DNA from: Candidatus Moraniibacteriota bacterium
Lineage (GTDB): Bacteria; Patescibacteriota; Minisyncoccia; Moranbacterales; GCA-2747515
DNA: 64,000 nucleotides
Assembly (NCBI GenBank): GCA_027031495.1
Contig: JALVQA010000013.1
Location: 5,714 to 69,713 of the forward strand
Reading direction: 5' to 3'
This document shows positions 5,955 to 62,327 of the stretch, one piece after another. How positions within the stretch are numbered: the stretch's first letter is position 1; each line of letters begins with the position of its first letter. The notes beneath the pieces are model-generated. The model worked only from the letters and a program-made list of their open reading frames with translations. It had not been told where the DNA came from and did not search any database. A program made the position numbers and the translations under genes.

Positions 5955-5968
5955 ATTCTTCCAATAAA

Positions 5969-26166: not shown

Positions 26167-28086
26167 TCACCATACTACCGCCCTATCCCCTTGCTCTTCA
26201 CGGGCATTGGCAATACATGCTTTCAAACCCGCTGTCTGCGTCCATCCACACTGCCCGTCCGCCTGTTGTTCGCATACGGCATCTTTATAACATGCATATT
26301 CAGCACGCCACTCACATGTCGTGTTAAGATCTCTATCAGCACAGATCTGTCCGCTACACCCGGTCGGATGGCATTTTTTCGCTGTTTTCTTTTTATTTTG
26401 CTTATTTTTCGGACACGCACCTTTTCTGATATCGGTTGCTTTATCAGCTTTTGCATAGCACTCATTCTTATATGTTTTCCTACAATATTGTTCCTGTAAT
26501 TTTTTGTCCTCTGCACTATCACCATCAAAAACACATTTTTGGATCATGGCGCATACAGGCTCACGTTTCTGTGGGCACGTACCATGCCCCGGTGCAAACA
26601 CAATGCAACCCGGCTCTTTCTTTTCTTCTTCTCTGCATGCTCGTAGCGTACATATCATAGGTCTACCATTCTCTATACCACATGTGTTACACCCATCAAA
26701 CCACGTTATGCAATCTTCTGGAATTGTCGGCCTTTCTTCATTTTCTTTTTTTCTATCATGCTCAATGCTGTTATTGAGACCAACAATAGTCCATCGATAT
26801 TCACCATTTTGTGTATCAGAACATGCGCCATCTTGCGAACATCCACATTTCCATGCGCCATCCTCATAGATACACATGTAGTACGCAAGATATTGCGTAT
26901 TACCTTTCATATGTTCACGTGATACATCTGCACGCGCAGCACCAACAACCCACTTACCACTCGTATCACGTGGACCGTGCAGACGCACACTATTTTCTTC
27001 TGTAAAGGTTTTACCATCCGTTGTGTAGTACGCGCGATGCCAAATATAGTATCGTTGGTCATGTGGTTCGCTTCCAATAAACACTCTAAAAAGATCCTTA
27101 TCATCTGCACAATTAACATACGCCAATGAGCGATTGTTCCTAAACGGATCAACCGGTTGTACAAAAAGTGAACCTTTCAGTTCCACATCACGCTGACATA
27201 TGTCATTCTTTATGCTTTTTAAATCAGGACACACAAATTCACACTTTTTACCGGAACGACCAACAACCGTGCCATCCGCACAAATCTTCACATCGTCAGG
27301 GCATACCACTTTCTCGCCAAGAACACCAACTTTTATCGTGCGTTTTTGTGACTGCAAAATGCCATAAAAGCATCGTAATGAAAAAGACGCATGCTCAGTA
27401 TCTATATTTTTAACCACCTTTCTTCCACTCTTTTTGCGCAAACCATGCCATCCACCGGAGGCAAAGCACCACTTCGCATCGGGCACATCCCACGCAAGAA
27501 CAACACTTCCACCAGGCGTAACCGTTCGTGGCACTGCCACAAAGAAGAAATCGTCATCATCGTCTTCTTGCCCACTCAAATCATCAACAGAAAAAATCTC
27601 ATTCAGTAGCGCCACTTCCACCTGCGCTTCCTTCGTATTTTCCTTTGTATGTGAACATGATGTTACACGTATAACATCATGATCCTCACTGTCTTTAAGA
27701 ATTACGCCACTACTATCACGTACATGGTTTGCGTAGACAATGTATTCCGTATTTGGTTTAAATGAATAGCCGCAAAGCGACGACGTACCGGGCGTCTCTA
27801 CAGTCACGGTATGCACCGTATTATCAAGACCGGTCCACACCTGCATAACATCAAAGCGAATGAATTTCTTGTCATCAAAAGTAATGCTTGTCACATTATC
27901 ACTCACACTCTCTTTTACACGACCAACAGGGTGTGCTGTGCCCATAAATATAACATCATATCCTCTTATCACATCAGCGGAGAGTTTTGATTTTACGCAT
28001 GAACATGCACGTGCCGTCTGCACATAGACAAAACACAAGCTCATTACAAGTGTGGCTAGTACAAAAAAACGATACGCTTTTGACAT
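26167..28086 (-). CDS. Large secreted cysteine-rich protein, hypothetical
   Basis: 639 aa with an N-terminal signal peptide (MSKAYRFFVLATLVMSLCFVYVQTARA) and about 50 Cys concentrated in the C-terminal third; no recognisable family. Confidence 0.6.
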   Translation of the reverse strand: MSKAYRFFVLATLVMSLCFVYVQTARACSCVKSKLSADVIRGYDVIFMGTAHPVGRVKESVSDNVTSITFDDKKFIRFDVMQVWTGLDNTVHTVTVETPGTSSLCGYSFKPNTEYIVYANHVRDSSGVILKDSEDHDVIRVTSCSHTKENTKEAQVEVALLNEIFSVDDLSGQEDDDDDFFFVAVPRTVTPGGSVVLAWDVPDAKWCFASGGWHGLRKKSGRKVVKNIDTEHASFSLRCFYGILQSQKRTIKVGVLGEKVVCPDDVKICADGTVVGRSGKKCEFVCPDLKSIKNDICQRDVELKGSLFVQPVDPFRNNRSLAYVNCADDKDLFRVFIGSEPHDQRYYIWHRAYYTTDGKTFTEENSVRLHGPRDTSGKWVVGAARADVSREHMKGNTQYLAYYMCIYEDGAWKCGCSQDGACSDTQNGEYRWTIVGLNNSIEHDRKKENEERPTIPEDCITWFDGCNTCGIENGRPMICTLRACREEEKKEPGCIVFAPGHGTCPQKREPVCAMIQKCVFDGDSAEDKKLQEQYCRKTYKNECYAKADKATDIRKGACPKNKQNKKKTAKKCHPTGCSGQICADRDLNTTCEWRAEYACYKDAVCEQQADGQCGWTQTAGLKACIANAREEQGDRAVVW

Positions 28087-36366: not shown

Positions 36367-38004
36367 TTACTTATCTGCATCATCCTCATCAGACACTTTA
36401 CGTTCTTTGTGTGAACGTGAGCGCTTCGCCTTCTTTCCTTGTGAGGTGCGATGACGCACTGTTGTTATGTACCAAAGAAGTGCGGCAATAAGCGCTAAGA
36501 GTGCAACGACAACAAGTCTGTATACTACAAGTAGCCGAGAGTTCTGCACACTAGAAGATTGTGCACCTTGCGACGTATTTTGCTGCGTATCTGTCACCGC
36601 GCTCGTTGGTGCCGTATGTACAGCACTGTCCTCGGATGACGAACGTGTAGATACGTCATTGGACGCAGACGCATCGCTTCCACCATTGCTATGCGTTACA
36701 TTCTGTTCATTCTCTGTGCTACTACCTGATTCTTCAATAATAAAAGCATGCTCCTCCGTTTGTAACACTTGCTCACCATCACGATATCCAACGAGATACC
36801 ACCGATACCATCGTCCCGGTGTCAACAGCGCACGTGAGAGTGTGTAGCGATCTGCTTCCTTATCCACTTCCGTATCAAAGAACACAACACCTGTCATGTT
36901 TTTCATTGCGAGAACAACTTTATCGAGATGCTCCGTGCCAGCTGCCTGCCAACGAAATGTTGGTGTTACACTATTGATGTGCTCTCCATCCATTGGTGAT
37001 AGCGGCACCAGCTGTACAGTTGATGCCGTCTCATCAGCACTGTCAACGTTATCACTGGCAGTGCTAGATTCATCGTCAGTATCATCACTAGAAGAATCAC
37101 TTTCTTCCTCTTCTGTTAAAGCAGAATCTTCTTCCGGAGCAACGCCATCGTCAGATGCATCAGAACTTTCATCCGCATCATCATCACCAGTTGCATCTTC
37201 GACACTGCCGACGCCCGGCACAATATCCATTATATCACCAAGAAATCTGCCAAGAGGCAATGTATTGCTGTATTCTACCGTAATATACGCTGGTGTCGTA
37301 TTATCATCAATTGCGATGAGCCAACCGGCATCTCTACGACCAAGAGAGAGGCCATTTGACAAATTGACATGCCCATCCAACCATTCTTTTATCAGTGGTG
37401 TAATATCAACAAAATGCCAGCCACTGTCAAATGTTAAAGGCGCTGATATGACATCATGACCAACAACTGAAGCCGGTTGATGTGCCCATGTTACATCAGT
37501 GCCATCACTCCATGGATGTGCGGCCGGTGCGATGCGCAAACGACCATGATCTGTCCCCATATGCGACAGTATACGAAAGTAGAGACGAGCACGCACAACA
37601 TCACTTGATGAGCGACGTTCTATGGCATCGAGATCAAACCGAACATAACTGTGCGCCAGCGTTCGCTCAGATGTGTGTGGATCTGTATAATCCGCAATAA
37701 GAATAAATGGACGCGACGCAAAACTCGTATGTTGGTGTGCAAAATCAATATACGTGCCAGCTACGCGATCTGCGCGGAAGGTTTTCGCGACAGCATCATG
37801 CGCACCAAACAAAAGCACCGCAACAATTATACTGGTGGCTGCAGCGCGTGTAACTGTTTCAATAGACATAGTCGTATGGTGTTTAATAAACAACATGCCA
37901 CTATCTCCACTTTCACGCGCCAACGATCCACAGCCCTTTTTGTCTATTGTATACCTGTTGTCAGGTACTGTCCAGGAATGCCAATGCAGTGACGATGCTT
38001 GCAA
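36367..38004 (-). CDS. Type I membrane/surface protein with an acidic Ser/Asp/Glu-rich linker and a C-terminal TM anchor, hypothetical
   Basis: 545 aa. The signal peptide probably starts at an internal Met (MLFIKHH.../MSIETV..., about 37869-37896). It also has a D/E/S-rich low-complexity stretch and a C-terminal TM helix with a basic tail. Confidence 0.55.
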   Translation of the reverse strand: MQASSLHWHSWTVPDNRYTIDKKGCGSLARESGDSGMLFIKHHTTMSIETVTRAAATSIIVAVLLFGAHDAVAKTFRADRVAGTYIDFAHQHTSFASRPFILIADYTDPHTSERTLAHSYVRFDLDAIERRSSSDVVRARLYFRILSHMGTDHGRLRIAPAAHPWSDGTDVTWAHQPASVVGHDVISAPLTFDSGWHFVDITPLIKEWLDGHVNLSNGLSLGRRDAGWLIAIDDNTTPAYITVEYSNTLPLGRFLGDIMDIVPGVGSVEDATGDDDADESSDASDDGVAPEEDSALTEEEESDSSSDDTDDESSTASDNVDSADETASTVQLVPLSPMDGEHINSVTPTFRWQAAGTEHLDKVVLAMKNMTGVVFFDTEVDKEADRYTLSRALLTPGRWYRWYLVGYRDGEQVLQTEEHAFIIEESGSSTENEQNVTHSNGGSDASASNDVSTRSSSEDSAVHTAPTSAVTDTQQNTSQGAQSSSVQNSRLLVVYRLVVVALLALIAALLWYITTVRHRTSQGKKAKRSRSHKERKVSDEDDADK

Positions 38005-38010
38005 TATACG

Positions 38011-39780
38011 TTAGAATGCACCGATATTACCACCATCTGTCGCCGCACCTTTTGCCGGAGAACCATCCTTGAGATGAAAATCCCCCGCCGCCGGATTGAC
38101 AAACTGCGGATCGCCAACAATCGTGTTAATGCCATCGTACGGCACCATATCACTGTCCCATTTATGTGCACCATTTTGCGGACCATTGATGAGGTTGTTT
38201 TCTATCTTGATATTCTTTGCAAGAAGATCCGCCTCACCGCCACCATATTGATCCTTTGCATAGGCAATCTGAAAGTCTGCACTGTCACTGATAATATTGT
38301 CATGGATTGCAACATTCTTAATATTAGCACTATAGATGTTAAGACCGCCACCAATCCATCCGCCATCTATGCCATGCCCACTGTGCACGATTGTGTTCTT
38401 GTAAATCTTAACATTTTCACGTGGACCATTTGCGCCAAAGCGTGAGATATAGATGCCATTGCCAGCATTGTTATACAGGAGATTATGGTGGAATGATATA
38501 TTTTTTGCAAGATCGGGGTTTTCAGAACTCAGCGCAAATCCCATAAAGCCGCATCCTCGCCCGATGTTGCTGTAAATTTCAATATCATGCAGTCCACCAA
38601 ATCCAGCGTCCACATAGTAACATTGTCGCGCAATATTTTCTACGAGGTTGTGATGCACTTTACCATTGCCACTATTCTCTTTTACGTCAATACCTTCTTT
38701 GTGAGAGTCGTGGATATGATTGTATGCAATTTCAAAATTTTGCACACCCATTGTGCTAATTGCTTCATGCGGCGCTTCTCCACCACCATAACCCGCCATT
38801 GCCATACTGTTGTCCGTCGCGCCGATAATCGTATTGTGTAAGATGCGCACATCATGCGGGTTCTGACAGCCGTTATTGGCAATGCTCAGTGTGTTAATGC
38901 CGGATGAAAAGGTATGTTTGGTTGTATTGCCGATAATATCCACGTGGTGTGCACTGCACACAGAAATGCCACTGCTTTGTGCATTGTGCACCTGCAAATT
39001 CTCAATACGAATATAGCTCACCCCATTGCTGATAAGAATCGCACCATAGTCACGATCATCAAGCGCAACGCTTCTGCCAGAAAAGTCCAGAATTACCGTT
39101 TCCCCTGGATAGCCGGCAAACGTAATCCACGCGTCCGGTGTGCCAGAGTTTTTCGGCTCCACGCGCTCTGTCAACTGGTATGTCCCATCGCGCACATAGA
39201 CGGTCTGCCCCGCTGTTAGTGTTTCTGCTGCATGCTGTAGCGTTGCCCACGGCTTGTCTTTTGTGCCGGGATTGCTATCAGAGCCATTTGGCGCGACATA
39301 AAATGCTCCCGCCACTTCCGGCTGTGGCGTATAGTTCTCCGCACCGTAGATACTCTCATCCATTACAGGCGGCTCTACATTGTCCGTGTCTGCCATAGTA
39401 GATGATGCTGTGCGTTGTGTTGTACCCGTATCAACAACAATCCTGTTTGCGCCGCCAATTGCAACAAGAGAACTACTACTGCCCCCGGTAGAGCTCCTTG
39501 TTGAAATACGAACATTGTTACTGCCGGTCCCTCCTCCGTTCGTTGTTGACGTATCCGTACCCACACTCGTCGTTGTACTTAATGGCGCTGTCGGTGCAAC
39601 TGGCACACCCATTGACTGCACCGTTCTTTGTAACGCCTGGACACGTGCCTGGAGTTGATCGTGCGTTTGCAAATCTGATTGCTGTGGCTGTGTAATAACA
39701 CCCTTCCCCACAAAATACGTCGTGATTAACGCTATGAGCGTAAGAACGATTTTTAATAATTGCTGTAGGATTGCTTGCAT
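38011..39780 (-). CDS. Membrane-anchored right-handed parallel beta-helix (pectin-lyase-fold) repeat protein
   Basis: 589 aa with an N-terminal TM helix, a T/S/G-rich linker, then many NxxI/H-rich beta-helix-like repeats (HNTIIG, HHNLVEN, HHNLLYNN, HDNIISD). Confidence 0.65.
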   Translation of the reverse strand: MQAILQQLLKIVLTLIALITTYFVGKGVITQPQQSDLQTHDQLQARVQALQRTVQSMGVPVAPTAPLSTTTSVGTDTSTTNGGGTGSNNVRISTRSSTGGSSSSLVAIGGANRIVVDTGTTQRTASSTMADTDNVEPPVMDESIYGAENYTPQPEVAGAFYVAPNGSDSNPGTKDKPWATLQHAAETLTAGQTVYVRDGTYQLTERVEPKNSGTPDAWITFAGYPGETVILDFSGRSVALDDRDYGAILISNGVSYIRIENLQVHNAQSSGISVCSAHHVDIIGNTTKHTFSSGINTLSIANNGCQNPHDVRILHNTIIGATDNSMAMAGYGGGEAPHEAISTMGVQNFEIAYNHIHDSHKEGIDVKENSGNGKVHHNLVENIARQCYYVDAGFGGLHDIEIYSNIGRGCGFMGFALSSENPDLAKNISFHHNLLYNNAGNGIYISRFGANGPRENVKIYKNTIVHSGHGIDGGWIGGGLNIYSANIKNVAIHDNIISDSADFQIAYAKDQYGGGEADLLAKNIKIENNLINGPQNGAHKWDSDMVPYDGINTIVGDPQFVNPAAGDFHLKDGSPAKGAATDGGNIGAF

Positions 39781-47129: not shown

Positions 47130-48629
47130 CTAATTCATATATATTGAGAAATGTGGCGCTGATATATGATTACCAAGATCATTACCTCTCTTGTCTGTAC
47201 CTATCACATTTTTCCGTGGCACGCCCGCTTTGATAAGCGCCTCAGCCTCTTTCTTAGTTTTAACCTCATACACAGGACGTAAACCAGCTTTTTCTGCGGC
47301 CTCAATAAATTTTTTAATATTTTCCGGTGTTGGTTGCGTCCCACCGGTGAAGTTCGCATCAATGCACGTTCCATTTTGATGACATTTATCATAGTGCTTA
47401 ACTGTCGGTGGCCATGCTTCTGTAATATGCCAATCAATACTCTCTTCGTCTAATTTCATTTCTAAACCCTCAAGACGTGCCGCAAGAACCGAATTGACAG
47501 CACAGTCATTTACGTCACCCTTACATGCACCTCTCTTCACTGGAAGACCATGCTCTGCAAGTTTTGTGCCATTTTCAAGTTGTGTAGAAGGGACCACCGT
47601 ATCACCACCAGTATTGGCATTGCCTGTGCCGCCGGCATTGGCATTGCCTGTGCCGCCGGCAGCTCTCTCGCGACTTATATCATCGGAAACAGCAGTAAGT
47701 TTCTCAAGATTTTCCGCAATACCGACAAGGTCGGGATTGATCGTAAAGAGAATGACCCACGAAAAGAATGCAAGAAGAAGACCAAGTGTTGCATCCGTAA
47801 TCATTTTCTTTGCGCTACCGGCCGTCGCTTGATTGCCGGCGCTAAAAATATACGTAATGCCACCAATCGTCATCATGAAAAGTGCTGCCAAGCCAACAAT
47901 TGCAATACCAACATTAAAGATAAACTTAAGGAAATTTGGCAATTTTGCATTTTCCTTACTGATGAACATACTCTCCAACGGCTCATAATCGTAACGGCCA
48001 TTGAGAATGATTGTTGAATTAACAATGATACCTGTAGCTTTTTCTACACCTTCTCTCAAGTTTTTACTCTTTGAAACATCAACAAACGTGCAATCATTTG
48101 AGTTAAAACCAGTAGTATGAGTCCACCCATAACTTTTACAGCTATCAAGATCCTTAAAACAGTTAATAGCGCTGTCTTCTTTAAAACAATATGCCTCAGT
48201 TTGTTTTACGCACGTTGCTGCTACACCACTGTTTTCACATTCTTTAATAGTGTCAAAACACCTTCCAGAAGCCATAGCATTGTTACACCATACCTCCCCG
48301 GTCGGCTTTCCATACTCCTTAGCATGTGCATCAGCTTCAAATATGTTTATGCATTTGCTATCATTACACAGATCAGCAGATTGATAACACGCAAACCCAT
48401 TGTCTATAAATTTGCAAAATTTCATTCCCTCCTTTTCTGCAAAAGCACGCTGATCATCAACTTTCTGACATGTAGCACTATTACATTGTTCTTTTTGTGC
48501 GTAACAGAACAGTGAAACATCTGTTTTTACACAGTACGCCTCTGCATGTGCACTCTGTGGCACGAGGAACACAAAGCCACTCACAAGCACTGTGAGTGCA
48601 AGAGATAGACTTCCAAGAATGTGACGCAT
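47130..48629 (-). CDS. Secreted cysteine-rich membrane protein with a two-helix hydrophobic hairpin (VirB2/TrbC-pilin-like topology), hypothetical
   Basis: About 500 aa from an internal Met (MRHILGSLSLALTVLVSGFVFLVPQSAHA). It has a Cys-rich ectodomain (about 24 Cys), two adjacent TM helices and a C-terminal globular domain. Confidence 0.55.
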   Translation of the reverse strand: MRHILGSLSLALTVLVSGFVFLVPQSAHAEAYCVKTDVSLFCYAQKEQCNSATCQKVDDQRAFAEKEGMKFCKFIDNGFACYQSADLCNDSKCINIFEADAHAKEYGKPTGEVWCNNAMASGRCFDTIKECENSGVAATCVKQTEAYCFKEDSAINCFKDLDSCKSYGWTHTTGFNSNDCTFVDVSKSKNLREGVEKATGIIVNSTIILNGRYDYEPLESMFISKENAKLPNFLKFIFNVGIAIVGLAALFMMTIGGITYIFSAGNQATAGSAKKMITDATLGLLLAFFSWVILFTINPDLVGIAENLEKLTAVSDDISRERAAGGTGNANAGGTGNANTGGDTVVPSTQLENGTKLAEHGLPVKRGACKGDVNDCAVNSVLAARLEGLEMKLDEESIDWHITEAWPPTVKHYDKCHQNGTCIDANFTGGTQPTPENIKKFIEAAEKAGLRPVYEVKTKKEAEALIKAGVPRKNVIGTDKRGNDLGNHISAPHFSIYMN

Positions 48630-48630
48630 A

Positions 48631-48849
48631 CTACTCTTCATTGATTTGTTTTTTGATTTCTTCAAAAGCATTCTCCACTTCACCAAGGCGCTTCTTGCTC
48701 TGCGCAATCAACTCCGCACCCTTCTTGATCTTCATGAGCCCCTCCTCTACATCCACATCATCGTGCGCCTCAAACCATGCTGCAATTGCATCCAGTTCTT
48801 TAAGTGCTTCTGTCAAATTGATCTTTTTGTTTACTGTTTTATTATTCAT
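48631..48849 (-). CDS. xseB: Exodeoxyribonuclease VII small subunit
   Basis: 72-aa helical protein (LTEALKELDAIAAWFEAHD ... EEGL) directly downstream of xseA. Confidence 0.8.
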   Translation of the reverse strand: MNNKTVNKKINLTEALKELDAIAAWFEAHDDVDVEEGLMKIKKGAELIAQSKKRLGEVENAFEEIKKQINEE

Positions 48850-48852: not shown

Positions 48853-50418
48853 TTACCGCTTGCGACTCACAACTACCACTATTGTACCATCACTCAGTTG
48901 GACATTCAACTCTTCGCCACTATAGACATCTGCAACGTGACGCACAACACCGCGCTGACCGCGCACAATTGCATACCCGCGCGCAAGAAGTCTCTGTGGA
49001 TTATGCATCATAAGCATTTTTTCTATCGTTACTATATGTGCATGCGCACGACGTAGCAGTTGCTTCTGCGCAGTACACAGATACTTCGCTACACGTACAA
49101 TATGCTCTCGCCGTGCACGTATCGCTTGTGCATACACAAAAATACACTGCACAAACCTTTGTTGCACACGTGTATAACGCGCCAGCACATCACTAAAACG
49201 TTGCGTCAATGCTGTCGCGGCATGTGTTATGTGATTGCGCGTATTTGTGAGTACAGTGTCATACGCATTGAACAGATCATATTGTCTTTGCCGTACGTGT
49301 GTGCGTGCCTGTGTCCACGACACACATAGTGCCTTTGCCGCAGCTGTCGGTGTAGAAACACCAACGTCCGCCACAAGCGTTGTCAATGTTTCGTCACGCT
49401 CGTGCCCAATGCCAGCAATCACCGGCACGGGAAAAGTGGCAAGTGCGCGTACGATTTTCTCGTTATTAAACGCTTGCAAACTCTCCAGCGACCCGCCGCC
49501 ACGCGTAACGACAAGTACGTCAATGTCACCACGCTGTGCCAGCGCATGCATCATGCGAATGGCACCTATCAGTTCATGTATTGCATGTTGTCCCTCAACA
49601 GCACTGTGCACAAAACGTATATGCAGGCCGTGTGCGCCGAGATTTGTCATAAAATCACCGATCGCCGCACCATCACGTGACGTAATTAGACCAATGCGTG
49701 TTGCAAAATCTGGTATTGGACGTTTACGTTCAGGTGCAAAAAGTCCCTCTTTGGCGCATTTCTCCTTTAGGGCATCATACGCCTTTTTTAGCGCGCCCTC
49801 ACCGGCAAGTTCTACTGTCTCGCCGATAAAACTAAAGCCGTACTGCGCGTGATGTTGCGGACGTCCCGTCACAATTACTTCCATCCCATCGGCAAGCTCC
49901 ACACCAGAGAGTTCGTAAGCGTTACGAAAGACTGTCACGCGCATCACACCCGTTGCATCTTTGATGTGAAAGTATGCATGCCCCGTATGATTGCGTCTGT
50001 AGTCAACAACTTCGCCACGCACGCGCACGTGTTGAAAATGTGCCGCCATCAACATGTTGAGAGCACCGAGAAAATCACCCACAGAAAATGTTGTTTCTTC
50101 CGGCGACGCAAGAACCTCGCCTGTTTCAGCGTTATGCGCAACCGATTCAAGTGGAACTGTCTGTATATCATCGCACGTGCGCGTCGCACGCATGGGCGAG
50201 GTCATGTTCTCATCATTAAGTAATGCCAAAAGTGCCGCTCCATAGCGACGCACTTTAATCGCACCAATACCCTTTATACCAAGAAGTTCTTGTTCATTGC
50301 GTGGCACAGCATGCGAAAGCTCAACAAGTGTTTTGTATGGCAATACACGAAACGGCTCAACGCCCTCGCGTGCCGCTTGTTGTTGTTGCCATGTCACCAG
50401 TCGCTCTAGAAGTGTCAT
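48853..50418 (-). CDS. xseA: Exodeoxyribonuclease VII large subunit with an N-terminal HhH/HRDC-like extension
   Basis: 521 aa with an OB-fold and XseA catalytic core (RVRGEVVDYRRNHTGHAYFHIKD ... ITSRDGAAIGDF), preceded by about 110 aa containing a GIKGIG-type helix-hairpin-helix. Confidence 0.85.
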   Translation of the reverse strand: MTLLERLVTWQQQQAAREGVEPFRVLPYKTLVELSHAVPRNEQELLGIKGIGAIKVRRYGAALLALLNDENMTSPMRATRTCDDIQTVPLESVAHNAETGEVLASPEETTFSVGDFLGALNMLMAAHFQHVRVRGEVVDYRRNHTGHAYFHIKDATGVMRVTVFRNAYELSGVELADGMEVIVTGRPQHHAQYGFSFIGETVELAGEGALKKAYDALKEKCAKEGLFAPERKRPIPDFATRIGLITSRDGAAIGDFMTNLGAHGLHIRFVHSAVEGQHAIHELIGAIRMMHALAQRGDIDVLVVTRGGGSLESLQAFNNEKIVRALATFPVPVIAGIGHERDETLTTLVADVGVSTPTAAAKALCVSWTQARTHVRQRQYDLFNAYDTVLTNTRNHITHAATALTQRFSDVLARYTRVQQRFVQCIFVYAQAIRARREHIVRVAKYLCTAQKQLLRRAHAHIVTIEKMLMMHNPQRLLARGYAIVRGQRGVVRHVADVYSGEELNVQLSDGTIVVVVSRKR

Positions 50419-50530
50419 ACGTATCTATATTTATGCGTATATCATTATATCATACAAAACTCTTTACAAAATGTACTTTTTATGTTTTTATATAGTAAAG
50501 ACTGTAATATATATTATCATTGCAATTACC

Positions 50531-51769
50531 ATGAAATTTTCACCAGAAGAAGCGCTGTTGTCACCACATAGACAGGAAACGACAGATCCACGTGAGAGAG
50601 AACAGCAGCCAGTCGTAGAAAGAATACGCACAGCTCTTGCAACGATGCGCGAAAACGTTGGGTCATCCTATCACACCGTGTGTGACAGATTGCGTATGTA
50701 CAGACAGCGCATGCTAGATGATAGCAAAAAAGAGGATGTACCAAAAGAAGATCATATTGACGAAGGACGTCGTCGTTTCGTAGGCGCGCTTGGTGCCGCT
50801 GTACTTGTCGGCGCACTTCCAAAGAGTGTGCGCGCATTAGACCGCATTGACAGTAGCAATGAAGGAGAGGTTTGCCCTATTAATTTACTGCGCGGGTACG
50901 TGGAAATATATGTTTGTGATGAAAATGGTAAAAATTGTGAGTTTAAGTACACTGACCCAAAAACCGGTGAAACTTACTCTCGTGATGAAGCACTTCGCCG
51001 TGCCGGCATGTCATCACAAGAACCCACACAGCCAGTAGAGAAAACAGGAGAAAAACAGCAAGATCTTGACAGTGAGACAAGAGCTCGCATGAACACACAG
51101 AGGTACAGAGATGTAAAAGAACGTGAACGATGGCGGAAACCAGTCAGATTGACAGAGCAAGAACGCGCGCTTCTGAGAGAACAATTGGCAAACACTCCCA
51201 TTGATGGATTGAGTGAGAGGGAGCTTGAAAAGCTCTACAGGCGTGCTAACTTAACACAAAAGCGTCTAGAAAAGGATTCTTCCGCTGATTTATTTATCAG
51301 TGTTTTCAGTAAAAAATATGGCATCCCAAAGGATCTCATCCGCGCTGTAATCACGATGGAATCAAATGGTATGCGTACAGCGCTTAATCTTAACAGTGCA
51401 TGCGCCGGATATATGGGTGTCTCACCAATCGCCGCACGTGATGTAGGACGCGGGGTAATGGATCATCTTGTTACAGACAGAGAAACCTTAAAAAAAATTC
51501 ACAGAATTATTGAAACTAACGATAAAAAGGCGATTGCCAGCCTGAGCTACGATGAAAAAACGACACTTAAAACACTTTCTACCATAATGGACACTGCGCT
51601 TAATATCGCTAGCGGTACCGGCTACCTTGCACGCACATTTCATGAGACAGGATCGCTTGTTGATGCGCTTAAAAAGTATAATTATAGCACGGATCCGCGC
51701 GCATACGCTTACCCTGTTATCGCTATTGCTCGCTACTTACGTAAGAAAAGAGAGCGACAGCAAAAATAA
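50531..51769 (+). CDS. Lytic transglycosylase (SLT)-domain protein with an N-terminal charged region and RRRF/hydrophobic segment
   Basis: 412 aa from the internal ATG (MKFSPEE...), with RRRFVGALGAAVLVGALPKSVRA and a C-terminal SLT-like VITMESNGMRTA ... AGYMGVSPIAA region. Confidence 0.65.
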   Translation: MKFSPEEALLSPHRQETTDPREREQQPVVERIRTALATMRENVGSSYHTVCDRLRMYRQRMLDDSKKEDVPKEDHIDEGRRRFVGALGAAVLVGALPKSVRALDRIDSSNEGEVCPINLLRGYVEIYVCDENGKNCEFKYTDPKTGETYSRDEALRRAGMSSQEPTQPVEKTGEKQQDLDSETRARMNTQRYRDVKERERWRKPVRLTEQERALLREQLANTPIDGLSERELEKLYRRANLTQKRLEKDSSADLFISVFSKKYGIPKDLIRAVITMESNGMRTALNLNSACAGYMGVSPIAARDVGRGVMDHLVTDRETLKKIHRIIETNDKKAIASLSYDEKTTLKTLSTIMDTALNIASGTGYLARTFHETGSLVDALKKYNYSTDPRAYAYPVIAIARYLRKKRERQQK

Positions 51770-55420: not shown

Positions 55421-56362
55421 TTATGCTTTCTCAGCACCACGCTCTTGCGCACTTACACCGTACAAGACAATGCCACCGCCAGTTATAATGAGACTTCCTA
55501 TAACGAACCACCAATATACACGACAGTTATCAAAGAAATACCATGCCACGAGAGCACCCACAAGTGCTAAAACACTTATCACAAGAGCATTGCGTCGTTG
55601 CATGCGCTTGAGTATGACGGCAGCATTTATACCAAAGAGTGCGCCGAGGAAGAGAACCCATAGCCACCATGGGAGGAGATTGCTACATGACTGTGCGCCA
55701 CGCACTTCCCCGCTCGTACTGTCACTACTCGTCGCCTCGCTACCGGCAACAGTACCATTTGTATCTATCGTCTCTTCGCCGTCACTTTCCGTCTCAGCAC
55801 CAAGCACTTCACCTGCCGGTGCCGGATTACCACCAGCAATCTGACCGGCGCGCAGTGGTAGTGGCGCAGTTGTTGTCGTCGGCTTACCCTTAAAACCAAA
55901 CCTTATATCAAAGGATGTCTTTTGTCGCTGAAACTCATTACCGGCGTCTTCATTAAACTTTATCTTCAAAGTATAGCGATTTTTTTCGCCGGTCTCCAAT
56001 CGCTCCACAAAAACACTGCCTTCCTTATAAAGCTCATCAAGCGTGAATCTGTCGCCACTGCCACCGATATAATATTTTCCGGAGCTCTTATCAATAAGGT
56101 ATACCTTGAGCTGACTTGCAAACTTCTTATTCTTTAGGTCTTCAATTTTGAAATAGAGATCTTGTGGTTCACCAACGTTTTTGACAGTAATATCATGAAC
56201 TATACTGTCACCGGGCTTCATATTCTTCTCATTAACTATCGCATTTTTGTCACCATGCCAATCAACGTCAATGATAACCTCGGCAGACACGGTGGACGCC
56301 ATACCCAACACCATCGCTATAGCCGCAAAAAACGTTACTACTTTTTTGATACCCTGTTGCAT
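55421..56362 (-). CDS. TasA/camelysin-like secreted domain protein with three C-terminal TM helices, hypothetical
   Basis: 313 aa with a signal peptide, a MKPGDSIVHDITVKNVGE motif shared with the two neighbouring paralogues, a G/S/A-rich linker and a polytopic C-terminus. Confidence 0.5.
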   Translation of the reverse strand: MQQGIKKVVTFFAAIAMVLGMASTVSAEVIIDVDWHGDKNAIVNEKNMKPGDSIVHDITVKNVGEPQDLYFKIEDLKNKKFASQLKVYLIDKSSGKYYIGGSGDRFTLDELYKEGSVFVERLETGEKNRYTLKIKFNEDAGNEFQRQKTSFDIRFGFKGKPTTTTAPLPLRAGQIAGGNPAPAGEVLGAETESDGEETIDTNGTVAGSEATSSDSTSGEVRGAQSCSNLLPWWLWVLFLGALFGINAAVILKRMQRRNALVISVLALVGALVAWYFFDNCRVYWWFVIGSLIITGGGIVLYGVSAQERGAEKA

Positions 56363-56411
56363 AAACTACAGTACTATTTTCTTAAATTAGGACGCTTATC
56401 TTTTTTATATA

Positions 56412-59400
56412 CTATACACTCTCTGATCCCGGCGCTACGACGCCGTCAACCAATTTTGGTGCTTGTTGATCGTCACCATCATTTCCATCACGATCCACAT
56501 CACCGTCATCCTTGCTCTCATCAAGACCTTTCTCTTCCTTTTTTTCTGGTGATTTTACCTTTTGACCGGCCTTGTCCTTATTTGACTTATTCTCCTTTCT
56601 TTCATTATCACCGTCTTTTTCTTCTTCTTTCTTTTCTTTTTTCCGAGCCTCTTTCTTATCGCTCTTCTCAGCACCCTTGTCTACCTCCTTCTCGCCATCT
56701 TTCTCTTTCATACTTTCTTGCATTTCTCGTTCATCGTCTTGTGCTTTCTTGTTATCAGCGTCAGTGCCATTCCCGCCATCTTTATCTTTTTTCTCACTGT
56801 TAGCGCTATCACCATATTTACCACCCTCCTTGTCCGCGTCTTCGTCGTCACTCTTCTCATCACCCTTTGTAGCGCCTGTTGCCACACCGCCTTCATCGTG
56901 TGCACCTGCGACGTCAGTACCCTCTTTTTTGTCACCACTTTCTTTATCGCCACCGTTTTTATCATCACTCTTGTCTGTCACATCACCTTTTGTTTCGGTA
57001 TCAGCTACGCCGGCGCTATCTGTCGCATCATGCGTATCACCTGCAACACCGTCATGCTTTTCTTGACCATCTTTTTTCTTATCGTCACTACCAGAAGCAG
57101 ACGCATCTTGCGCACCATCTTCATGCATGTCGCCACCAGCTGCTTCTTTTTCTCCCACTTCATGATCTGCTTGACGCGTCTTCAAGACACGCTGTGTATC
57201 ACCTTCTTCTTGACGCTCATCAAACAAGTCATACTTCTTCATGAAATCTTTGCTACACAGCGGTGCACCACTCTCGTCAAAGCAATGCTCTTTATAGTAC
57301 GCTCGCATCTCATCTTTGTCGTTGCTGATATTATTCTTTTTGCCCGGTGTTGGAATCGGATCTACCCATGCACCATCATGATCCCAGTCGCGTGCAATAG
57401 ACTTTCCTTCCTCTACAGCATCAGCATCGTACTCGTATTCATCAACCAGATTACCCTCATTATCAAAGAGTTTTACAGCATCACCGTTGTTGTTAAGGTA
57501 GAAGCTTCTGTAGTTTTGTATAACAAGACGCTCACCCGGTTCAATAGTTGTTGAACCAGTGTTTGTGTGTTTAACATCAATCACTCTCTGCTGACCATTA
57601 CTATCAGCAATATACCATCCGTCAACGTCAACATTATCATTGCTAATATTGCGAAGCTCTACCCACTCCTTGCCTACTGCCGGCTGTGGCATAAATTCGT
57701 TAAGTACAACCTGTGTATTCTCAATCTCTGTTGGAAAACCGGCATCTACAAGGTCTCGCGTTTCATACTGGCGCGCGTTGCTGACAACATCGCCGAGCCA
57801 CACATCCACAACCGTCCACGTTCCCGGGTAAGACCCCTTTCTTAAGGTAATGCTACCGGTACACTCAACTTCACCACTTGTGCCGGTTGGCGTGCAGTCT
57901 GCTCCATTGATATGCAGAAAACCATCCTCCTCGCCATTTGCTGCTTCTATTTCAACATTCATGCCATCAAGACCAGACATGTCGTCACGTACACGTGCTG
58001 TGAAGGTAATTTCTTTTGCGCCGTCAACCGTATTAACTACTTTTGGCGTAAAGTCAAATGCTTCAAGCACCGGCGCCTCAGTATCAGACACCATCGCTTT
58101 ATTAGTAATTTTCAGATAATCACTATACACCGCCACATTCCCGGCATAATCAGGGAGATAGAACATTAACATCCACTCACCTGATCGCGCACCTCGTGGG
58201 AATGTCACCGTTATGCTGTACGTACCATCCTGATCTGTCCCGCTTGTACGATCATCATCTGTAATTGGATAACGAAGACCGGTGCCACCTCCCACAGGAT
58301 AGAACATAAGATACGGTCGGTATGTGGCATAGCCATCACCGGCAGCAAGGCCTGTTATATTGTCCGTCACACGAAATTGTACAGTTACATCTTGCACATG
58401 ATCTTCTGTATTAATCACCATCGGTGTGACTGTTGTTGCGTCCTCAAGTACCGGGTGCTGTGTATCTGCAGGCGATTCTGCATGATTAGTAACAATTAGA
58501 TCACCAAAGTCGCCCAGGTCACCTACCTCATATCTCCTTGTATTACCCATGTTGTCGGTAAGCGCAATATACGTAAACGTCCATTCGCCTTGTGCTGCCC
58601 ATTGTGGTATATCAACGGTGATTTCATACTTACCATCCTGTTGTGTACCGGAAGTACGATGTTCATCTCTGATAAATTTCTCAACCGCGTTTATTCTGCC
58701 ATCTTGATATGTGCCCGCATTACCAATAATAAACTTTGTTCCAGAGTACGTGCTTGTATCAAGACCTGTTCCTCTATCTGTTATATGCATTCTTACAGTA
58801 ACTGTCTGTGGCCCATAATCAGTATTCACATCATGTGGTGCGATAGAAATACTCTCAAGAATCGGCGCTTCGGTATCCACTGAAGCGGACACGCCATTGT
58901 AAATTGTCACCGGAAGCTCCTGTCGCAAGAGATCATCCGTCAGCCACTGCGCATAATTGCCATTATCATCCACCAAGAAGAAACGACGCAATACCCACTC
59001 ACCTTGCTCAGCATCGCGTGGGAAAGTAACACTCGCCTTATACACACCGTCGCCCTCGGCAGTCGCATCTTGCAAGAGCGCAGTCACAGACTTGTTACCG
59101 GACGGTGATACAAAGAGAATGTATGACGGTACAGAACTTGTGCGAGACGGCCCGCCAATATGACTATCACTTGCGGTCTTAAAGTATACATCAACTGTCT
59201 GCTCACTGTCTGTCGTATCTATTTCGTTTGGATCAAAGCGCAAGATTGCCAAGGCCGGTGCAATGCGCCTGTATGTTATACCTTTTACAATCGGGCTGTG
59301 CTCGCTATTGCCAACGTTATCCGTCGCACTTGCTTTGATGCAGTACGTACCATCTGTCGACGGCGTCCACGAATAACTCCACGTAAAAGATGTGTTGTTA

Positions 59401-61010
59401 TTAGGATCGTCGGCATCTGGATTGGAAATTGTTCCGATGTGCGTGTAACCAACGCCAGAAGGATCGCATGTATCCGTATTCTCATCGTAAGGCGCATACG
59501 ATAGGTCAACATGATCAACACCACTGAGCGCATCCACTGACTGCCCCTGAATAGTAATGCTCGTATTTTGATAGAATACTCCTTCAACCGGTGTGCTAAT
59601 AGTGGATGTTGGCTCCGTAGCATCGTATGTTACTTGACAGCTACCGTCTAGCGACTCGTCACTCACTGCCCATGCTGACTTATTGCCGGCTGTATCCACG
59701 GCGCGCACCGCAAAGCCGTACGTGCCCTCATGTGGCAACCACACACCATTGTACTGGAATATTGAATCAGTGAACACTCTCTTTTCTATGCCAATAGAAC
59801 CGTCCGGCGCATTAAACGACGTGTACTCATAGTGGTCAAAGTCGGGTTCTGTATTATCATCCCAATCAGGCCACATCTTTTGAATCTTTGAGTATACAGG
59901 ACGATCGTCAGTACCACATTCATATACTTTATTACCCTCATGCGGTGCGATGCGACGCAATCCTGTTGGACGTGCCGGCGGACCATCATACGTAATAGAG
60001 CATTCATTACTCCACTCAGAAACGGGCTCATCGGCGTCTACAACGTTGTCATTATCCTCATCAAACCATGCACGTACACGTGAGCCGTATGTCCCATCAT
60101 GTCCAGGGTTACCACCAAATGTTCTGTAATTTGTGTATGGGTGTGTGTAAATCTCGCTACCACGCCAACCATATGCACCTTCCTTCTTATACTGTCGCTG
60201 GTACTTGATCTTCGCATTGCCATGCGCAACATCCGTCCAGTGGATTGATATAGCATTAATATGTGTTACACCACCCATACATGCGAATTCATTCGGATCA
60301 CGTGGCGTTGCAGGATCATCACTACTGCTGTTTTTCTCGTTATATCCTGTCTGAACAGGTGTTGGGATGCCTGTATGAATAGTGTTATCATCAATAGTTT
60401 CTCCATCAACCCATCCACTTGTAGGATTGTCAAATTCTGTCTGCCATGCTGTAAAAGCAAATCTAAAAGAGCACTCTTCGTTTAGAGGTGTATCGTCCGG
60501 TGCGGTGATTGTAAAAATCCACTCATCGTGCGCATCCACCGCCAACATATGCGTCTCACTATCTAAATCAGAAAGGCCTCCATCATACACAACACTACCA
60601 TTCCGCTGCACTTCAACTTTCAGCGCTTCACACAATGCATCATCACCGTCAACTTTCTCAAAGACAACATTGTAATGAAAATCAACGCCACCGACATTCT
60701 CCACTTTTGCCGTTCGCGTAACACTGTCACCCGGCACCATATTCTCGGCAACTGTCGACAATTGCAATCCTGCATCCTGGCTCGTTGCTTTCATATCAAG
60801 ACTGCTGGCACCTATGCTCCCGGTAGCTGTTTCATGATCAATGTATGCTGCGTGCACATCTGTACTCAGCGCACTTACACACACAAAAACAGCAGCGCCA
60901 CTCAGCAGTGTCTTTAACGCCACTTTTAGAAGTTTCTCACAATGTTTTTGACTACAGTATCCTTTCTTCATACTCTTTTTCACATGTCTTATATTATATG
61001 GCACCATCAT
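56412..61010 (-). CDS. Giant (1532 aa) secreted multidomain surface protein: TasA/camelysin-like N-terminal domain, multiple Ig/FN3-like beta domains, a lamin-tail-like domain, and an approximately 340-aa acidic/Lys-rich disordered C-terminus
   Basis: A single uninterrupted ORF with a signal peptide and the MVPGDSVTRTAKVENVGG motif. It has repeated beta-rich modules, an LTD-like segment (VVLNEFMPQPAVGKEWVELRN) and a D/E/K/G-rich tail. Confidence 0.7.
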   Translation of the reverse strand: MMVPYNIRHVKKSMKKGYCSQKHCEKLLKVALKTLLSGAAVFVCVSALSTDVHAAYIDHETATGSIGASSLDMKATSQDAGLQLSTVAENMVPGDSVTRTAKVENVGGVDFHYNVVFEKVDGDDALCEALKVEVQRNGSVVYDGGLSDLDSETHMLAVDAHDEWIFTITAPDDTPLNEECSFRFAFTAWQTEFDNPTSGWVDGETIDDNTIHTGIPTPVQTGYNEKNSSSDDPATPRDPNEFACMGGVTHINAISIHWTDVAHGNAKIKYQRQYKKEGAYGWRGSEIYTHPYTNYRTFGGNPGHDGTYGSRVRAWFDEDNDNVVDADEPVSEWSNECSITYDGPPARPTGLRRIAPHEGNKVYECGTDDRPVYSKIQKMWPDWDDNTEPDFDHYEYTSFNAPDGSIGIEKRVFTDSIFQYNGVWLPHEGTYGFAVRAVDTAGNKSAWAVSDESLDGSCQVTYDATEPTSTISTPVEGVFYQNTSITIQGQSVDALSGVDHVDLSYAPYDENTDTCDPSGVGYTHIGTISNPDADDPNNNTSFTWSYSWTPSTDGTYCIKASATDNVGNSEHSPIVKGITYRRIAPALAILRFDPNEIDTTDSEQTVDVYFKTASDSHIGGPSRTSSVPSYILFVSPSGNKSVTALLQDATAEGDGVYKASVTFPRDAEQGEWVLRRFFLVDDNGNYAQWLTDDLLRQELPVTIYNGVSASVDTEAPILESISIAPHDVNTDYGPQTVTVRMHITDRGTGLDTSTYSGTKFIIGNAGTYQDGRINAVEKFIRDEHRTSGTQQDGKYEITVDIPQWAAQGEWTFTYIALTDNMGNTRRYEVGDLGDFGDLIVTNHAESPADTQHPVLEDATTVTPMVINTEDHVQDVTVQFRVTDNITGLAAGDGYATYRPYLMFYPVGGGTGLRYPITDDDRTSGTDQDGTYSITVTFPRGARSGEWMLMFYLPDYAGNVAVYSDYLKITNKAMVSDTEAPVLEAFDFTPKVVNTVDGAKEITFTARVRDDMSGLDGMNVEIEAANGEEDGFLHINGADCTPTGTSGEVECTGSITLRKGSYPGTWTVVDVWLGDVVSNARQYETRDLVDAGFPTEIENTQVVLNEFMPQPAVGKEWVELRNISNDNVDVDGWYIADSNGQQRVIDVKHTNTGSTTIEPGERLVIQNYRSFYLNNNGDAVKLFDNEGNLVDEYEYDADAVEEGKSIARDWDHDGAWVDPIPTPGKKNNISNDKDEMRAYYKEHCFDESGAPLCSKDFMKKYDLFDERQEEGDTQRVLKTRQADHEVGEKEAAGGDMHEDGAQDASASGSDDKKKDGQEKHDGVAGDTHDATDSAGVADTETKGDVTDKSDDKNGGDKESGDKKEGTDVAGAHDEGGVATGATKGDEKSDDEDADKEGGKYGDSANSEKKDKDGGNGTDADNKKAQDDEREMQESMKEKDGEKEVDKGAEKSDKKEARKKEKKEEEKDGDNERKENKSNKDKAGQKVKSPEKKEEKGLDESKDDGDVDRDGNDGDDQQAPKLVDGVVAPGSESV

Positions 61011-61024
61011 ATACTTTTAGTAGT

Positions 61025-61534
61025 TTACTCCCCTTTTCTTTCACTACCCCTTATTGCTCTCTTTCTTATTTTTAAAATCGCAGAAATCGTGACATACAGC
61101 GCCGGCACCAGAACACATAGAACAACACCCGTCCTCGTCTGCAAAAATGCTATCACATAACCGAGATACGGCAGCGACAACACAACCACCCCCTTTACCG
61201 CACTGTGTGGCACCGCATCCATGTCTGCTGTATTATTCGCATCACCCTTGGTGGTGTACACATCACCATCATTGCGTACAATACGATGTGTCACCAGATC
61301 GCGTTCTTTGTCATGAAAAGTAACAACATCGCCAACCGCATATGTTGCTTGTCTGCGCACAATAACGATGCTCCCTGTCTTTATCGTCGGCTCCATGGAA
61401 CCGGAGCGAATAATGAGTAGGTGATAATCAGAGTGTGGCAGGGCAATCATCGCACCCATAAAGAGTATTAGCCCGCCTGCAAACACAACAACCGTCCACT
61501 CAATAATCTTTCCTACTTTTTTTACACTACTCAT
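61025..61534 (-). CDS. sipW: Signal peptidase I of the SipW (archaeal/ER-type, S26B) class
   Basis: 169 aa with N- and C-terminal TM helices, a SGSMEP catalytic-Ser box, an HR box (THRIV) and GDAN...D. Confidence 0.8.
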   Translation of the reverse strand: MSSVKKVGKIIEWTVVVFAGGLILFMGAMIALPHSDYHLLIIRSGSMEPTIKTGSIVIVRRQATYAVGDVVTFHDKERDLVTHRIVRNDGDVYTTKGDANNTADMDAVPHSAVKGVVVLSLPYLGYVIAFLQTRTGVVLCVLVPALYVTISAILKIRKRAIRGSERKGE

Positions 61535-61655
61535 GCACTAATCACATCATCAAAGAACACTCTCTCCATCAACAATATCCCCTTTGGAAATTCAATCTTT
61601 ACAAGATTCAATCGCCCAAAGAGAAGCGGAAGAGCTCTTCCGCTCCATAAAAATA

Positions 61656-62327
61656 CTAGTTGTTGTGTACTTGATTGTCTACATTTTGTGTTAATGTAGC
61701 TACAAGGTTAACAACCACAGCGTCAGTCATGTAGACGTTGTCATTGCTACTTTCGGGAAGTGACCAATGAACTGTTACCTCAACAGTTTCCCCCTCTCCC
61801 AGTTCAGCAGAAGGAGTAATGCCGCTATCTACAAGTGCCTTGAGGCTCTTATCAGGAAGCGGGTTAACAAATGTTTCCGTTGATGATGTTGAGCCATCAA
61901 ATCTTGTAATATCCACACTGTCAATCATGATGTGCTCTGAAAGCTCGCCATTACCTGGTCCAACAAATTGACTTGGATCTTGTATTGCCTTTGCGGCAGC
62001 ACCATTTAAGGTACATGTCGTATCGCCACCTTCGTTATTCTCCGGTTCTACACAGTAGTTCTCATAATCTATAAGACCTTCGAAACTCACTTCTACAACA
62101 CCATTAACTGCATTAGAGTCATTTGTCACCTCTCTTGTAACAGTACCAGAGTCACCTGGCGCTACATTGGAGATTACAATCTCTTCATCATCTAGCAGAA
62201 GTTCCATGTATCCGCTTTGGATAGAACCGCTTGCACTCTTTGTGCTTGTCCATGCGGCATAGGAGCCAACACCTGCCACAGCTGCCACCGCTGCAACAGC
62301 AAATGCGCTCATAAGAATCTTTTTCAT
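61656..62327 (-). CDS. TasA/camelysin-like secreted protein with a SipW-cognate-type signal peptide
   Basis: 223 aa from the internal ATG at 62325-62327 (MKKILMSAFAVAAVAAVAGVGSYAAWTST), with a VAPGDSGTVTREVTNDSN motif; immediately upstream of sipW. Confidence 0.65.
   Translation of the reverse strand: MKKILMSAFAVAAVAAVAGVGSYAAWTSTKSASGSIQSGYMELLLDDEEIVISNVAPGDSGTVTREVTNDSNAVNGVVEVSFEGLIDYENYCVEPENNEGGDTTCTLNGAAAKAIQDPSQFVGPGNGELSEHIMIDSVDITRFDGSTSSTETFVNPLPDKSLKALVDSGITPSAELGEGETVEVTVHWSLPESSNDNVYMTDAVVVNLVATLTQNVDNQVHNN

Follow-up and report, generated by a model that had tools for sequence, protein, structure and literature searches.

A predicted SipW-processed TasA-superfamily fibre cassette in a Candidatus Moraniibacteriota bacterium

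Results

The present study analyzes a four-gene cassette, A, sipW, C and D, in a 64,000-nucleotide (nt) stretch of DNA, hereafter the window, from a Candidatus Moraniibacteriota bacterium (GenBank assembly GCA_027031495.1, contig JALVQA010000013.1); positions are those of the window, and the host is probably a bacterium of the candidate phyla radiation (CPR). The four genes occupy 55421-62327, all on the minus strand and in the order A > sipW > C > D. Gene A (61656-62327, minus) encodes 223 amino acids (aa) from an MKKILMS start and is a TasA/camelysin-family protein and candidate major fibre subunit; sipW (61025-61534, minus) encodes an archaeal/endoplasmic reticulum (ER)-type signal peptidase I of 169 aa; gene C (56412-61010, minus) is an intact open reading frame (ORF) for a giant secreted protein of 1532 aa, a candidate tip, nucleator or adhesin; and gene D (55421-56362, minus) encodes a membrane-anchored TasA-like protein of 313 aa, a candidate terminal acceptor and anchor. 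The gaps between them are 121 nt (A-sipW), 14 nt (sipW-C) and 49 nt (C-D). In Logan SRR13622960, an independent assembly of this sequence, the four gene calls are identical; together with the ORF list they confirm the four co-directional genes of the initial annotation. A longer ORF of 265 aa as gene A was supported neither by homologues nor by the independent gene call.

The sipW product scored 91.3 bits against TIGR02228, the archaeal/ER-type signal peptidase I model (cut-off 51.85), and also exceeded the cut-offs for Peptidase_S24 and S26, as its first assignment had implied. The motifs SGSMEP and THRI, which hold the Ser and His catalytic motifs, and KGDxN were conserved across six cassette sipW homologues. 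The protein is not the Bacillus SipW equivalog (NF046067, 104.8 bits against a cut-off of 190) and, judged from these profile scores, is of the same type as Bacillus SipW and not its orthologue.

Gene A contains the segment GVGSYAAWTST and passed the cut-offs of both PF12389 (Peptidase_M73, TasA/camelysin; 23.2 bits, cut-off 22.5, residues 2-82) and TIGR04088 (SipW-type signal; 27.4 bits, cut-off 19, residues 8-39), which bears out its initial description as a TasA-like protein with a SipW-cognate signal. A word-indexed search detected 11 homologues, and a profile of these, searched against PDB sequences, found TasA (8aur, 5of1) and AbpX (9sj2, 9rhp) as best matches at marginal values (E 0.003-0.016). 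The predicted signal peptide, residues 1-24 ending in GVGSYA (62256-62327, minus), was placed by profile alignment to mature TasA and by the TIGR04088 match, and SipW would cut between A24 and A25, with Trp at P2'. It is followed by a donor-strand-like segment, AWTSTKSASGSIQSGYMEL, at residues 25-43 (62199-62255, minus), which aligns without gaps to TasA 28-46. Six acidic or amide residues are invariant in the A family (E89, N90, E96, E128, N197 and D202). A role of A as a zinc protease was rejected: there is no His among the invariant positions, and therefore no zinc-protease motif.

In TasA the donor strand that enters the following subunit is formed by residues 28-38, immediately behind the SipW site, and residues 39-47 join it to the body; the N-terminus of TapA mimics this strand and is thought to provide the initial one (PMC9674648, PMC10151520). 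As a family, A aligned in register with the mature TasA N-terminus, and the segments of both A and C could be matched to TasA 28-46 without gaps: TasA 28-46 reads AFNDIKSKDATFASGTLDL, A reads AWTSTKSASGSIQSGYMEL and C reads AYIDHETATGSIGASSLDM. The motif comprises an aromatic residue at the predicted P2' followed by xDTExSxGNxxxAxxLD, and over about 20 loci it was present in every A and every C, directly after the predicted signal-peptide cleavage site, and in no D. Homologues of D start instead with a plain AxA-type signal and then (E/D)xKIDVEY-like sequence. There were two forms of C, one bearing a jelly-roll domain behind the motif, as in the window, and one in which the motif runs straight into an Ig-like domain and a lamin tail domain (LTD); the latter, with the motif kept and the jelly-roll missing, was found at loci L012, L016, L017, L019, L025, L026 and L032. 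To judge from their domain content, such C proteins can donate a strand and cannot accept one; what stays constant in C is accordingly its donor strand, not its acceptor domain. With C donor-only or donor-first, A both donor and acceptor, and D acceptor-only, a single consistent order follows, C > A(n) > D.

Window A and window C both lack the near-invariant Asn of the G-N pair (GNSI to GSI), so that the distance from the aromatic residue to the L of LD, read by eye, is 16 residues in these two proteins and 17 everywhere else. Over the segment of the loss the A and C genes are identical at 25 of 72 nt (35%), and recent gene conversion is therefore ruled out as the cause of the joint loss, which looks like a parallel or compensatory change. 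Such a change would be expected if the strands of A and C fit the same groove, and it is a single event, not a statistic. An aromatic P2' is poorly cleaved by LepB, which is the reason that TasA requires SipW (PMC10269814), and the presence of a dedicated peptidase in the cassette may be understood on the same ground, because the aromatic P2' context suits LepB poorly.

The domain map of C was built by Pfam scans of separate segments; scanned whole, the protein matched LTD, DUF7035 and DUF7743. Alignment with the A family by hhalign marks out a signal peptide with a long basic n-region, extending up to about residue 55, together with the donor-strand-like segment AYIDHETATGSIGASSLDM (60792-61010, minus; donor segment alone 60792-60848, minus), and SipW is predicted to cut at VHA/AY, with Tyr at P2'. 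A TasA-like jelly-roll domain follows at about residues 56-215 (60366-60845, minus), recognized by PF12389, by A-family alignment and by an AlphaFold2 (AF2) model searched with Foldseek; the N-terminal 300 aa scanned alone scored 22.2 bits against PF12389, just below the cut-off of 22.5. Two conserved modules without a Pfam model lie at residues 215-345, with the pattern QTGYN...PYTNYRTFGG...SRVRAW, and 345-465, with the pattern PTGLRR...YGFAVRAVDTAGNKS (together 59616-60365, minus); there was no Pfam match there and a weak OmpL47-type match over residues 215-465. Five Ig-like beta-sandwich modules occupy residues 467-1095 (57726-59612, minus): a Big_7-like module at 467-580, below threshold, and four DUF7034/7035-like modules at 585-1095, of which the one at 712-835 passed (DUF7035, 36 bits, cut-off 27) and the remainder fell below threshold. 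The LTD at residues 1098-1194 (57429-57719, minus) scored 63.4 bits against PF00932 in the whole protein and 69.2 on the isolated segment (cut-off 34.3), and an LTD was found in most C homologues. After it comes a motif with two Cys, WVDPxPTPGxKN...YYxExCFD...C.K.FM..DL, at residues 1213-1263 (57222-57374, minus), seen by homologue alignment in window C and at L002, L004, L005 and L012.

By composition, C ends in a low-complexity tail rich in D, K, E and G (56415-57221, minus); residues 1196-1532, 337 aa, contain 18% D, 15% K, 12% E and 12% G. The share of K, E and D over the last 150 residues was 0.36-0.67 in close C homologues and 0.16-0.43 in remoter ones. There was no transmembrane (TM) segment and no sorting motif at the C-terminus, and self-BLAST found no internal repeats at E 1e-3. 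Thus the TasA-like N-terminus, the Ig-like modules, the LTD and the long charged tail that had been proposed for the giant protein were all recovered, and the FN3-like character also proposed for its modules was not confirmed. A homologue search with the N-terminus returned two proteins only. Against the TapA model TIGR04087 (YqxM_for_SipW) this region scored 16.5 bits (E 0.005, cut-off 80); by this score C is not a TapA family member, though TapA-like in its proposed role. Of the C homologues, those at L016 and L012 scored 17.2 and 10.7 bits against TIGR04088, both under the cut-off of 19. The modules of residues 215-465 are kept in C homologues and recur in the unrelated giant proteins P0126, P0135 and P0155. 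These three also end in the anchor module of D described below, which suggests module shuffling among surface proteins.

Gene D has a signal peptide, by sequence reading, that would end at TVSA/EV (56282-56362, minus), with neither an aromatic P2' nor the donor-strand motif, and the protein did not match the TIGR04088, TasA or TapA models. Against PF12389 it scored 22.3 bits, just under the cut-off and over residues 34-64 only. An AF2 model built from a 10-sequence alignment has an all-beta domain (predicted local distance difference test, pLDDT, 71-89 over residues 41-160), a disordered linker and three helices at 232-251, 256-277 and 285-312; a short N-terminal strand at residues 31-35 was modelled at low confidence. 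The jelly-roll ectodomain spans residues 28-165 (55868-56281, minus), and Foldseek against 350,542 PDB chains ranked the TasA fibre first (8aur_A, E 2.7e-6) and the TasA crystal structure second (5of2, E 3.6e-5, TM-score 0.52 on the target). The initial view of D as a TasA-like protein ending in three TM helices is thus in keeping with both the modelled helices and the top two fold matches. Sequence searches of the PDB with the D profile, and with a profile of the C N-terminus, returned nothing relevant. The D family is large: an exhaustive profile search gave 2,635 representatives with E<=1e-3, and 927 with E<=1e-10.

The C-terminal anchor module of D (55424-55687, minus; bounded by the AF2 helices) consists of Cys226, a WPWW-type TM1, a basic loop KRMQRRN, TM2, the motif FDNC(280)RVY and TM3, with two invariant cysteines, C226 ahead of TM1 and C280 in the TM2-TM3 loop. 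Under the positive-inside rule the KRMQRRN loop would be cytoplasmic, which would place the ectodomain, C226 and C280 outside. A module of about 105 residues with the same pattern, V.G..C..WP.W.W ... W..D.C...WF, also forms the end of unrelated, adhesin-like proteins with lengths of 548-1909 aa and many SdrD_B, SpaA, Big, HYR, LTD and beta-helix domains; it was found at the C-termini of P0100, P0112, P0114, P0126, P0135, P0155, P0120 and P0129, and no Pfam or NCBIfam model matches it. Because it ends so many unrelated surface proteins, it behaves as a portable membrane anchor, and may be a general one for surface proteins.

Whether A, C and D are paralogues, as first proposed, depends on the method of comparison. 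BLASTP gave E 2e-4 for A against C, E 2e-3 over a 19-residue motif for C against D, and no similarity between A and D; pairwise search barely links the three, and the relationship therefore needs profiles and structure. With hhalign, the A family aligned to the C N-terminus at 97.5% (E 8e-12, signal and first strands) and to the D family at 90% (E 1.5e-6, whole domain), and C to D at 63.5%. In a domain-limited alignment, C residues 14-222 matched the A family end to end with five invariant columns; a global alignment of a 332-aa, two-domain C query with the A family was stretched over the second C domain and was discarded. Among Pfam families, PF12389 ranked first for A and D and for the N-terminal 300 aa of C scanned alone. 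AF2 monomer models were made for D and for the C N-terminus, the latter with pLDDT 90-96 at query residues 81-160 (C 94-173), and the top PDB match of the C model was again the TasA fibre (8aur_A, E 1e-4, TMq 0.46). A TasA-like jelly-roll fold was thus found in the D model, with the C model close to background; the fold E-value of C being so near to background, the sequence-profile evidence weighs more for this protein. The proposal of three paralogues is accordingly not apparent by BLASTP and stands by hhalign and predicted folds, and the claim that their shared N-terminal region is TasA/camelysin-like on profiles stands for A by the PF12389 cut-off and for C and D, which lie just under it, by the hhalign results.

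The cassette is conserved. Contigs retrieved through A homologues carried A > sipW > a large LTD protein > a D-like gene in three further genomes with differing flanks (L002, L004, L005), and contigs retrieved through D homologues added L010, beside a ribosomal/SecY operon, and L012 and L013; the closest relatives are labelled Candidatus Moraniibacteriota, Moranbacteria and Patescibacteria group. A scan of metagenome contigs with the D alignment alone found 44 loci, which were annotated with hidden Markov models built in this analysis, and counts were taken from the 22 that were not duplicates and had 4 kb or more of sequence upstream of D. In these, sipW was present in 18/22, A in 16/22 and an adjacent C in 17/22. 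All three partners occurred in 15 of the 22, always as A > sipW > C > D on one strand. Among the incomplete loci, two were truncated by a contig end, and L034 had A and sipW and lacked a separate C beside D, with an LTD match in the D-like ORF as well. The recurrence of the four-gene order in many unrelated contigs is therefore more than chance, and the co-conservation with sipW on which the initial annotation depended was seen in all close relatives examined as well as in those 18 loci retrieved through D alone.

The cassette tolerates insertion at the C-D junction, where L004 carries a RelB/ParE toxin-antitoxin pair (11767-12313; GCA_054039515.1). A small GIY-YIG nuclease gene lies between sipW and C at L012 (3744-4073) and L013 (6146-6442) and may be a mobile, homing-endonuclease-like insertion. 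There were also tandem TasA-like paralogues beside sipW, comprising five proteins of 409-645 aa at L030 (2888-11717), where sipW is of a 353-aa form, four A genes at L035 (1878-9353) and two at L050 (3510-10014); these may be minor or adapter subunits that the window lacks. At L011 a separate A-sipW pair (5822-7088, minus strand) lies about 5 kb from the D gene (48-965) and on the opposite strand, and the cassette can thus be split or duplicated. A PF12389 protein (38 bits) was seen in another context at L009 (2511-11983; 'Patescibacteria group'), with a 2419-aa protein with no Pfam family on one side and a pair of genes for type IV pilin-like proteins (T2SSG/N_methyl) on the other; this 17-kb locus yielded no homologue of sipW, C or D.

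The spacer between A and sipW (61535-61655, minus, 121 nt) holds two tandem hairpins, with a fold energy of -41.9 kcal/mol (z -4.9). The first is GC-rich, directly 3' of the A stop codon and followed by UCUCUUU. The same two-hairpin layout, with different sequences, recurs in four relatives (L002 3046-3160; L005 4304-4405; L004 8485-8630; L010 5536-5680), and a strong hairpin after the A stop codon was present in 13/19 among the distinct spacers listed. A consensus terminator scan did not flag the spacer hairpins. From its fold and position this element is a candidate terminator or attenuator that may keep the shaft subunit A in excess.

The setting of the cassette is ordinary chromosomal. Both flanks are housekeeping, with a MiaB-like radical-SAM enzyme and a beta-CASP/metallo-beta-lactamase protein downstream and DUF2853 and a hydrolase upstream, and the rest of the window includes EF-Tu, XseA, pyruvate:ferredoxin oxidoreductase and a class-V aminotransferase. 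Further large ORFs lie within 36367-39780, 47130-48707, 50297-51769 and 26167-28086; those of 545, 525, 490 and 639 aa are without a Pfam family at E<=1e-5, and one of 589 aa carries a Pel9A-like, right-handed beta-helix domain. They may likewise encode surface or secreted proteins.

Discussion

Patterns detected in the window and its relatives make it very probable that the cassette is a TasA-superfamily fibre system processed by SipW, and we think it probable, with less assurance, that it builds a cell-anchored surface fibre by donor-strand exchange. The specific arrangement of tip, shaft and anchor is favoured somewhat by the evidence. A, C and D would be exported by Sec. SipW would then cut A (A/AW) and C (A/AY) just ahead of the aromatic P2' residue, freeing an N-terminal strand on each. 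The strand of C would be inserted into the first A subunit's groove, in the manner of TapA with TasA and, as has been proposed, of TafC in the haloarchaeal tafi system, and this insertion would release the first A's own strand for the next A, with the shaft growing at its membrane-proximal end. D, a TasA-like acceptor without a donor strand, would capture the last free strand, halt growth and, by means of the three helices at its C-terminus, hold the fibre to the membrane. C would lie distally, with its Ig-like stalk, LTD and charged tail as an adhesive or interactive end, and the hairpin behind gene A may ensure that more A is made than of the other three products. The scheme of major subunit, tip or adhesin and membrane anchor put forward in the initial annotation is in outline supported by the distribution of the donor motif, which A and C carry and D does not. 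The anchor module of D is common to adhesin-like giants, as is to be expected of a generic membrane anchor. A role of the fibre in attachment to a host cell, also suggested at the outset, is unlikely on what is at hand.

Several observations weigh against this account. The PF12389 match of A is confined to about its first 80 residues, and C and D fall 0.2-0.3 bits short of the gathering score of that family. The E-value of 1e-4 for the C model barely beats a generic beta-sandwich background of about 3e-4, estimated from the next PDB matches and from a viral fold library used only for this purpose, and the alignment behind the C model also contained A-family sequences. TIGR04088 gives no match to window C. 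Window C has its own acceptor domain, and so could sit inside the fibre and not only at its tip, and the short N-terminal beta-strand of D, EVIIDVDW, could in principle be a donor. Four of the 22 loci counted, moreover, hold a remote D-like gene, matching in part at about 27% identity, and no partner gene at all.

An alternative explanation is a secreted matrix scaffold, in which A would form fibres or lattices released into a biofilm matrix, C would be a TapA-like nucleator and D an accessory outside the fibre. This has some appeal, as the PDB sequences nearest to the A family are those of TasA, a protein of the matrix, and of AbpX, which assembles into lattices; E89, N90, E96, E128, N197 and D202 of the A family could bind Ca2+ as in AbpX (bioRxiv 10.64898/2026.01.04.697558), and released, 'non-finalized' chains have been proposed for tafi (PMC11821415). 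It would not account, however, for a D protein that joins a TasA-fold ectodomain to a membrane anchor and stands directly after C in nearly all loci, the exceptions being L004, with its RelB/ParE insertion, and L034, with no adjacent C. A free acceptor domain held in the membrane has no obvious role beyond strand capture, and we regard a released scaffold as doubtful. Reversing the two ends of the fibre is improbable as well. Here C would be the cell-proximal anchor and nucleator, with its LTD and charged tail keeping it in the wall, and D would be a membrane-bound assembly platform or chaperone, or would donate an N-terminal strand of its own from which the fibre grows outward, which would be consistent with the description of TapA as an anchoring protein (PMC9674648, PMC9245690), with a long charged C tail without an adhesin-type fold, with an acceptor domain in window C that could cap a free donor end, and with the N-terminal strand modelled in D. 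Yet the C homologues without a jelly-roll cannot accept a strand and keep the donor motif, so that the conserved job of C is donating, whereas D never has the motif and its N-terminal strand is the low-confidence part of the model. A donor-only C at one end and an acceptor-only D at the other leave only one consistent polarity.

Finally, the four genes could be unrelated neighbours, A being a camelysin-type metalloprotease, C an independent adhesin and D an unrelated membrane protein, with SipW merely processing them. The Pfam name of PF12389, 'camelysin metallo-endopeptidase', and the weak or absent pairwise BLAST similarity among A, C and D would fit this. It is nonetheless very improbable, given that the A family has no invariant His, that profile and fold links join the three proteins, that order and co-occurrence are fixed over dozens of contigs, and that A and C have the donor motif in common, with a parallel deletion in it.

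If the cell-anchored fibre is real, CPR bacteria would gain a second kind of fibre, built without chaperones by donor-strand exchange and bearing a variable giant tip. Type IV pili are the only appendages experimentally tied to host binding in cultivated CPR bacteria (PMC9894109, PMC12206443). The boldest interpretation is that the window holds the type example of a widespread and undescribed CPR pilus, a Sec/SipW TasA fibre with a variable giant nucleator and an anchored acceptor that would provide another organelle for host attachment in addition to type IV pili, with the three-TM, two-Cys module as a general anchor; we consider this rather unlikely. The combination in one cassette of donor-only proteins (some C), donor and acceptor (A) and acceptor-only (D) would be a natural test of fibre polarity, a matter of wider use as the rules of polarity and termination for Bacillus TapA/TasA and for tafi lean largely on structure prediction. 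The C-terminal module of D is in addition an unannotated candidate for a general membrane anchor of large surface proteins. If the fibre is an ordinary released matrix protein, the finding would be simply one more TasA locus. The literature linking TasA/camelysin to CPR bacteria consists, as far as was found, of one sentence noting PF12389 homologues in Patescibacteria (PMC9245690); descriptions were found neither for the cassette nor for the D family or its anchor module, and none for LTD function in CPR bacteria.

One close comparison is the tapA-sipW-tasA operon of Bacillus subtilis (PDB 8AUR; PMC9674648, PMC10151520), which like the cassette has a PF12389 major subunit and an ER-type signal peptidase in the same operon, a donor strand directly after the cleavage site with an aromatic P2' in TasA as in A, and an accessory protein whose N-terminus mimics the donor strand, like that of C. 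The gene order differs, C is 6 times longer than TapA and adds Ig-like modules, the LTD and the charged tail, and Bacillus lacks a membrane-anchored TasA-like equivalent of D. The same four functional roles are found in the haloarchaeal tafi system, where TafC is the tip and nucleator, TafE an adapter, TafA/TafE the shaft, TafF the anchor and TafD the signal peptidase, and where TafF of Haloarcula hispanica, with a pilin-like N-terminal domain and three C-terminal TM helices, accepts the last donor strand (PMC11821415, PMC12337348). Like the cassette, the tafi locus encodes its own dedicated signal peptidase, and D is TafF-type by described architecture alone, with a pilin-like ectodomain and three TM helices beside pilin and peptidase genes. 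In contrast, tafi is archaeal and Tat-exported, whereas the signals of window A, C and D are, by reading, Sec-type without a twin arginine, and Tat dependence is therefore unlikely; the strand topology of tafi pilins is also unlike that of TasA, and tafi has no giant LTD-bearing protein.

The archaeal bundling pili AbpA/AbpB of Pyrobaculum calidifontis and the AbpX loci (PMC9245690; bioRxiv 10.64898/2026.01.04.697558) also belong to the TasA superfamily, and they polymerize by donor-strand complementation, as the cassette proteins would. AbpB, a multi-domain neighbour, is proposed to be a filament starter and adhesin, like C, and AbpX loci have minor subunits, tip proteins, anchors and a dedicated signal peptidase I, as is common in TasA-superfamily loci (bioRxiv 10.64898/2026.01.04.697558). 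AbpA, unlike the cassette, uses the general signal peptidase, the signal peptidase I associated with AbpX has ten TM helices, and bacterial AbpX anchors are SLH or LPXTG proteins and not the three-TM module of D. Chaperone-usher and sortase pili offer a functional analogy only, with a tip adhesin that comes before a polymeric shaft and a dedicated terminator or basal subunit (PapH, basal pilins) that ends growth and holds the fibre in place; their proteins are unrelated and their envelope is another one, and the cassette encodes no chaperone, usher or sortase. The logic of tip, shaft and three-TM anchor thus matches published models of tafi and TapA/TasA, and the idea is less new than when first presented. 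What sets the cassette apart from these known systems is the combination of predicted Sec/SipW export, a giant modular candidate tip with an LTD and a polyampholyte tail, and a widely shared anchor module.

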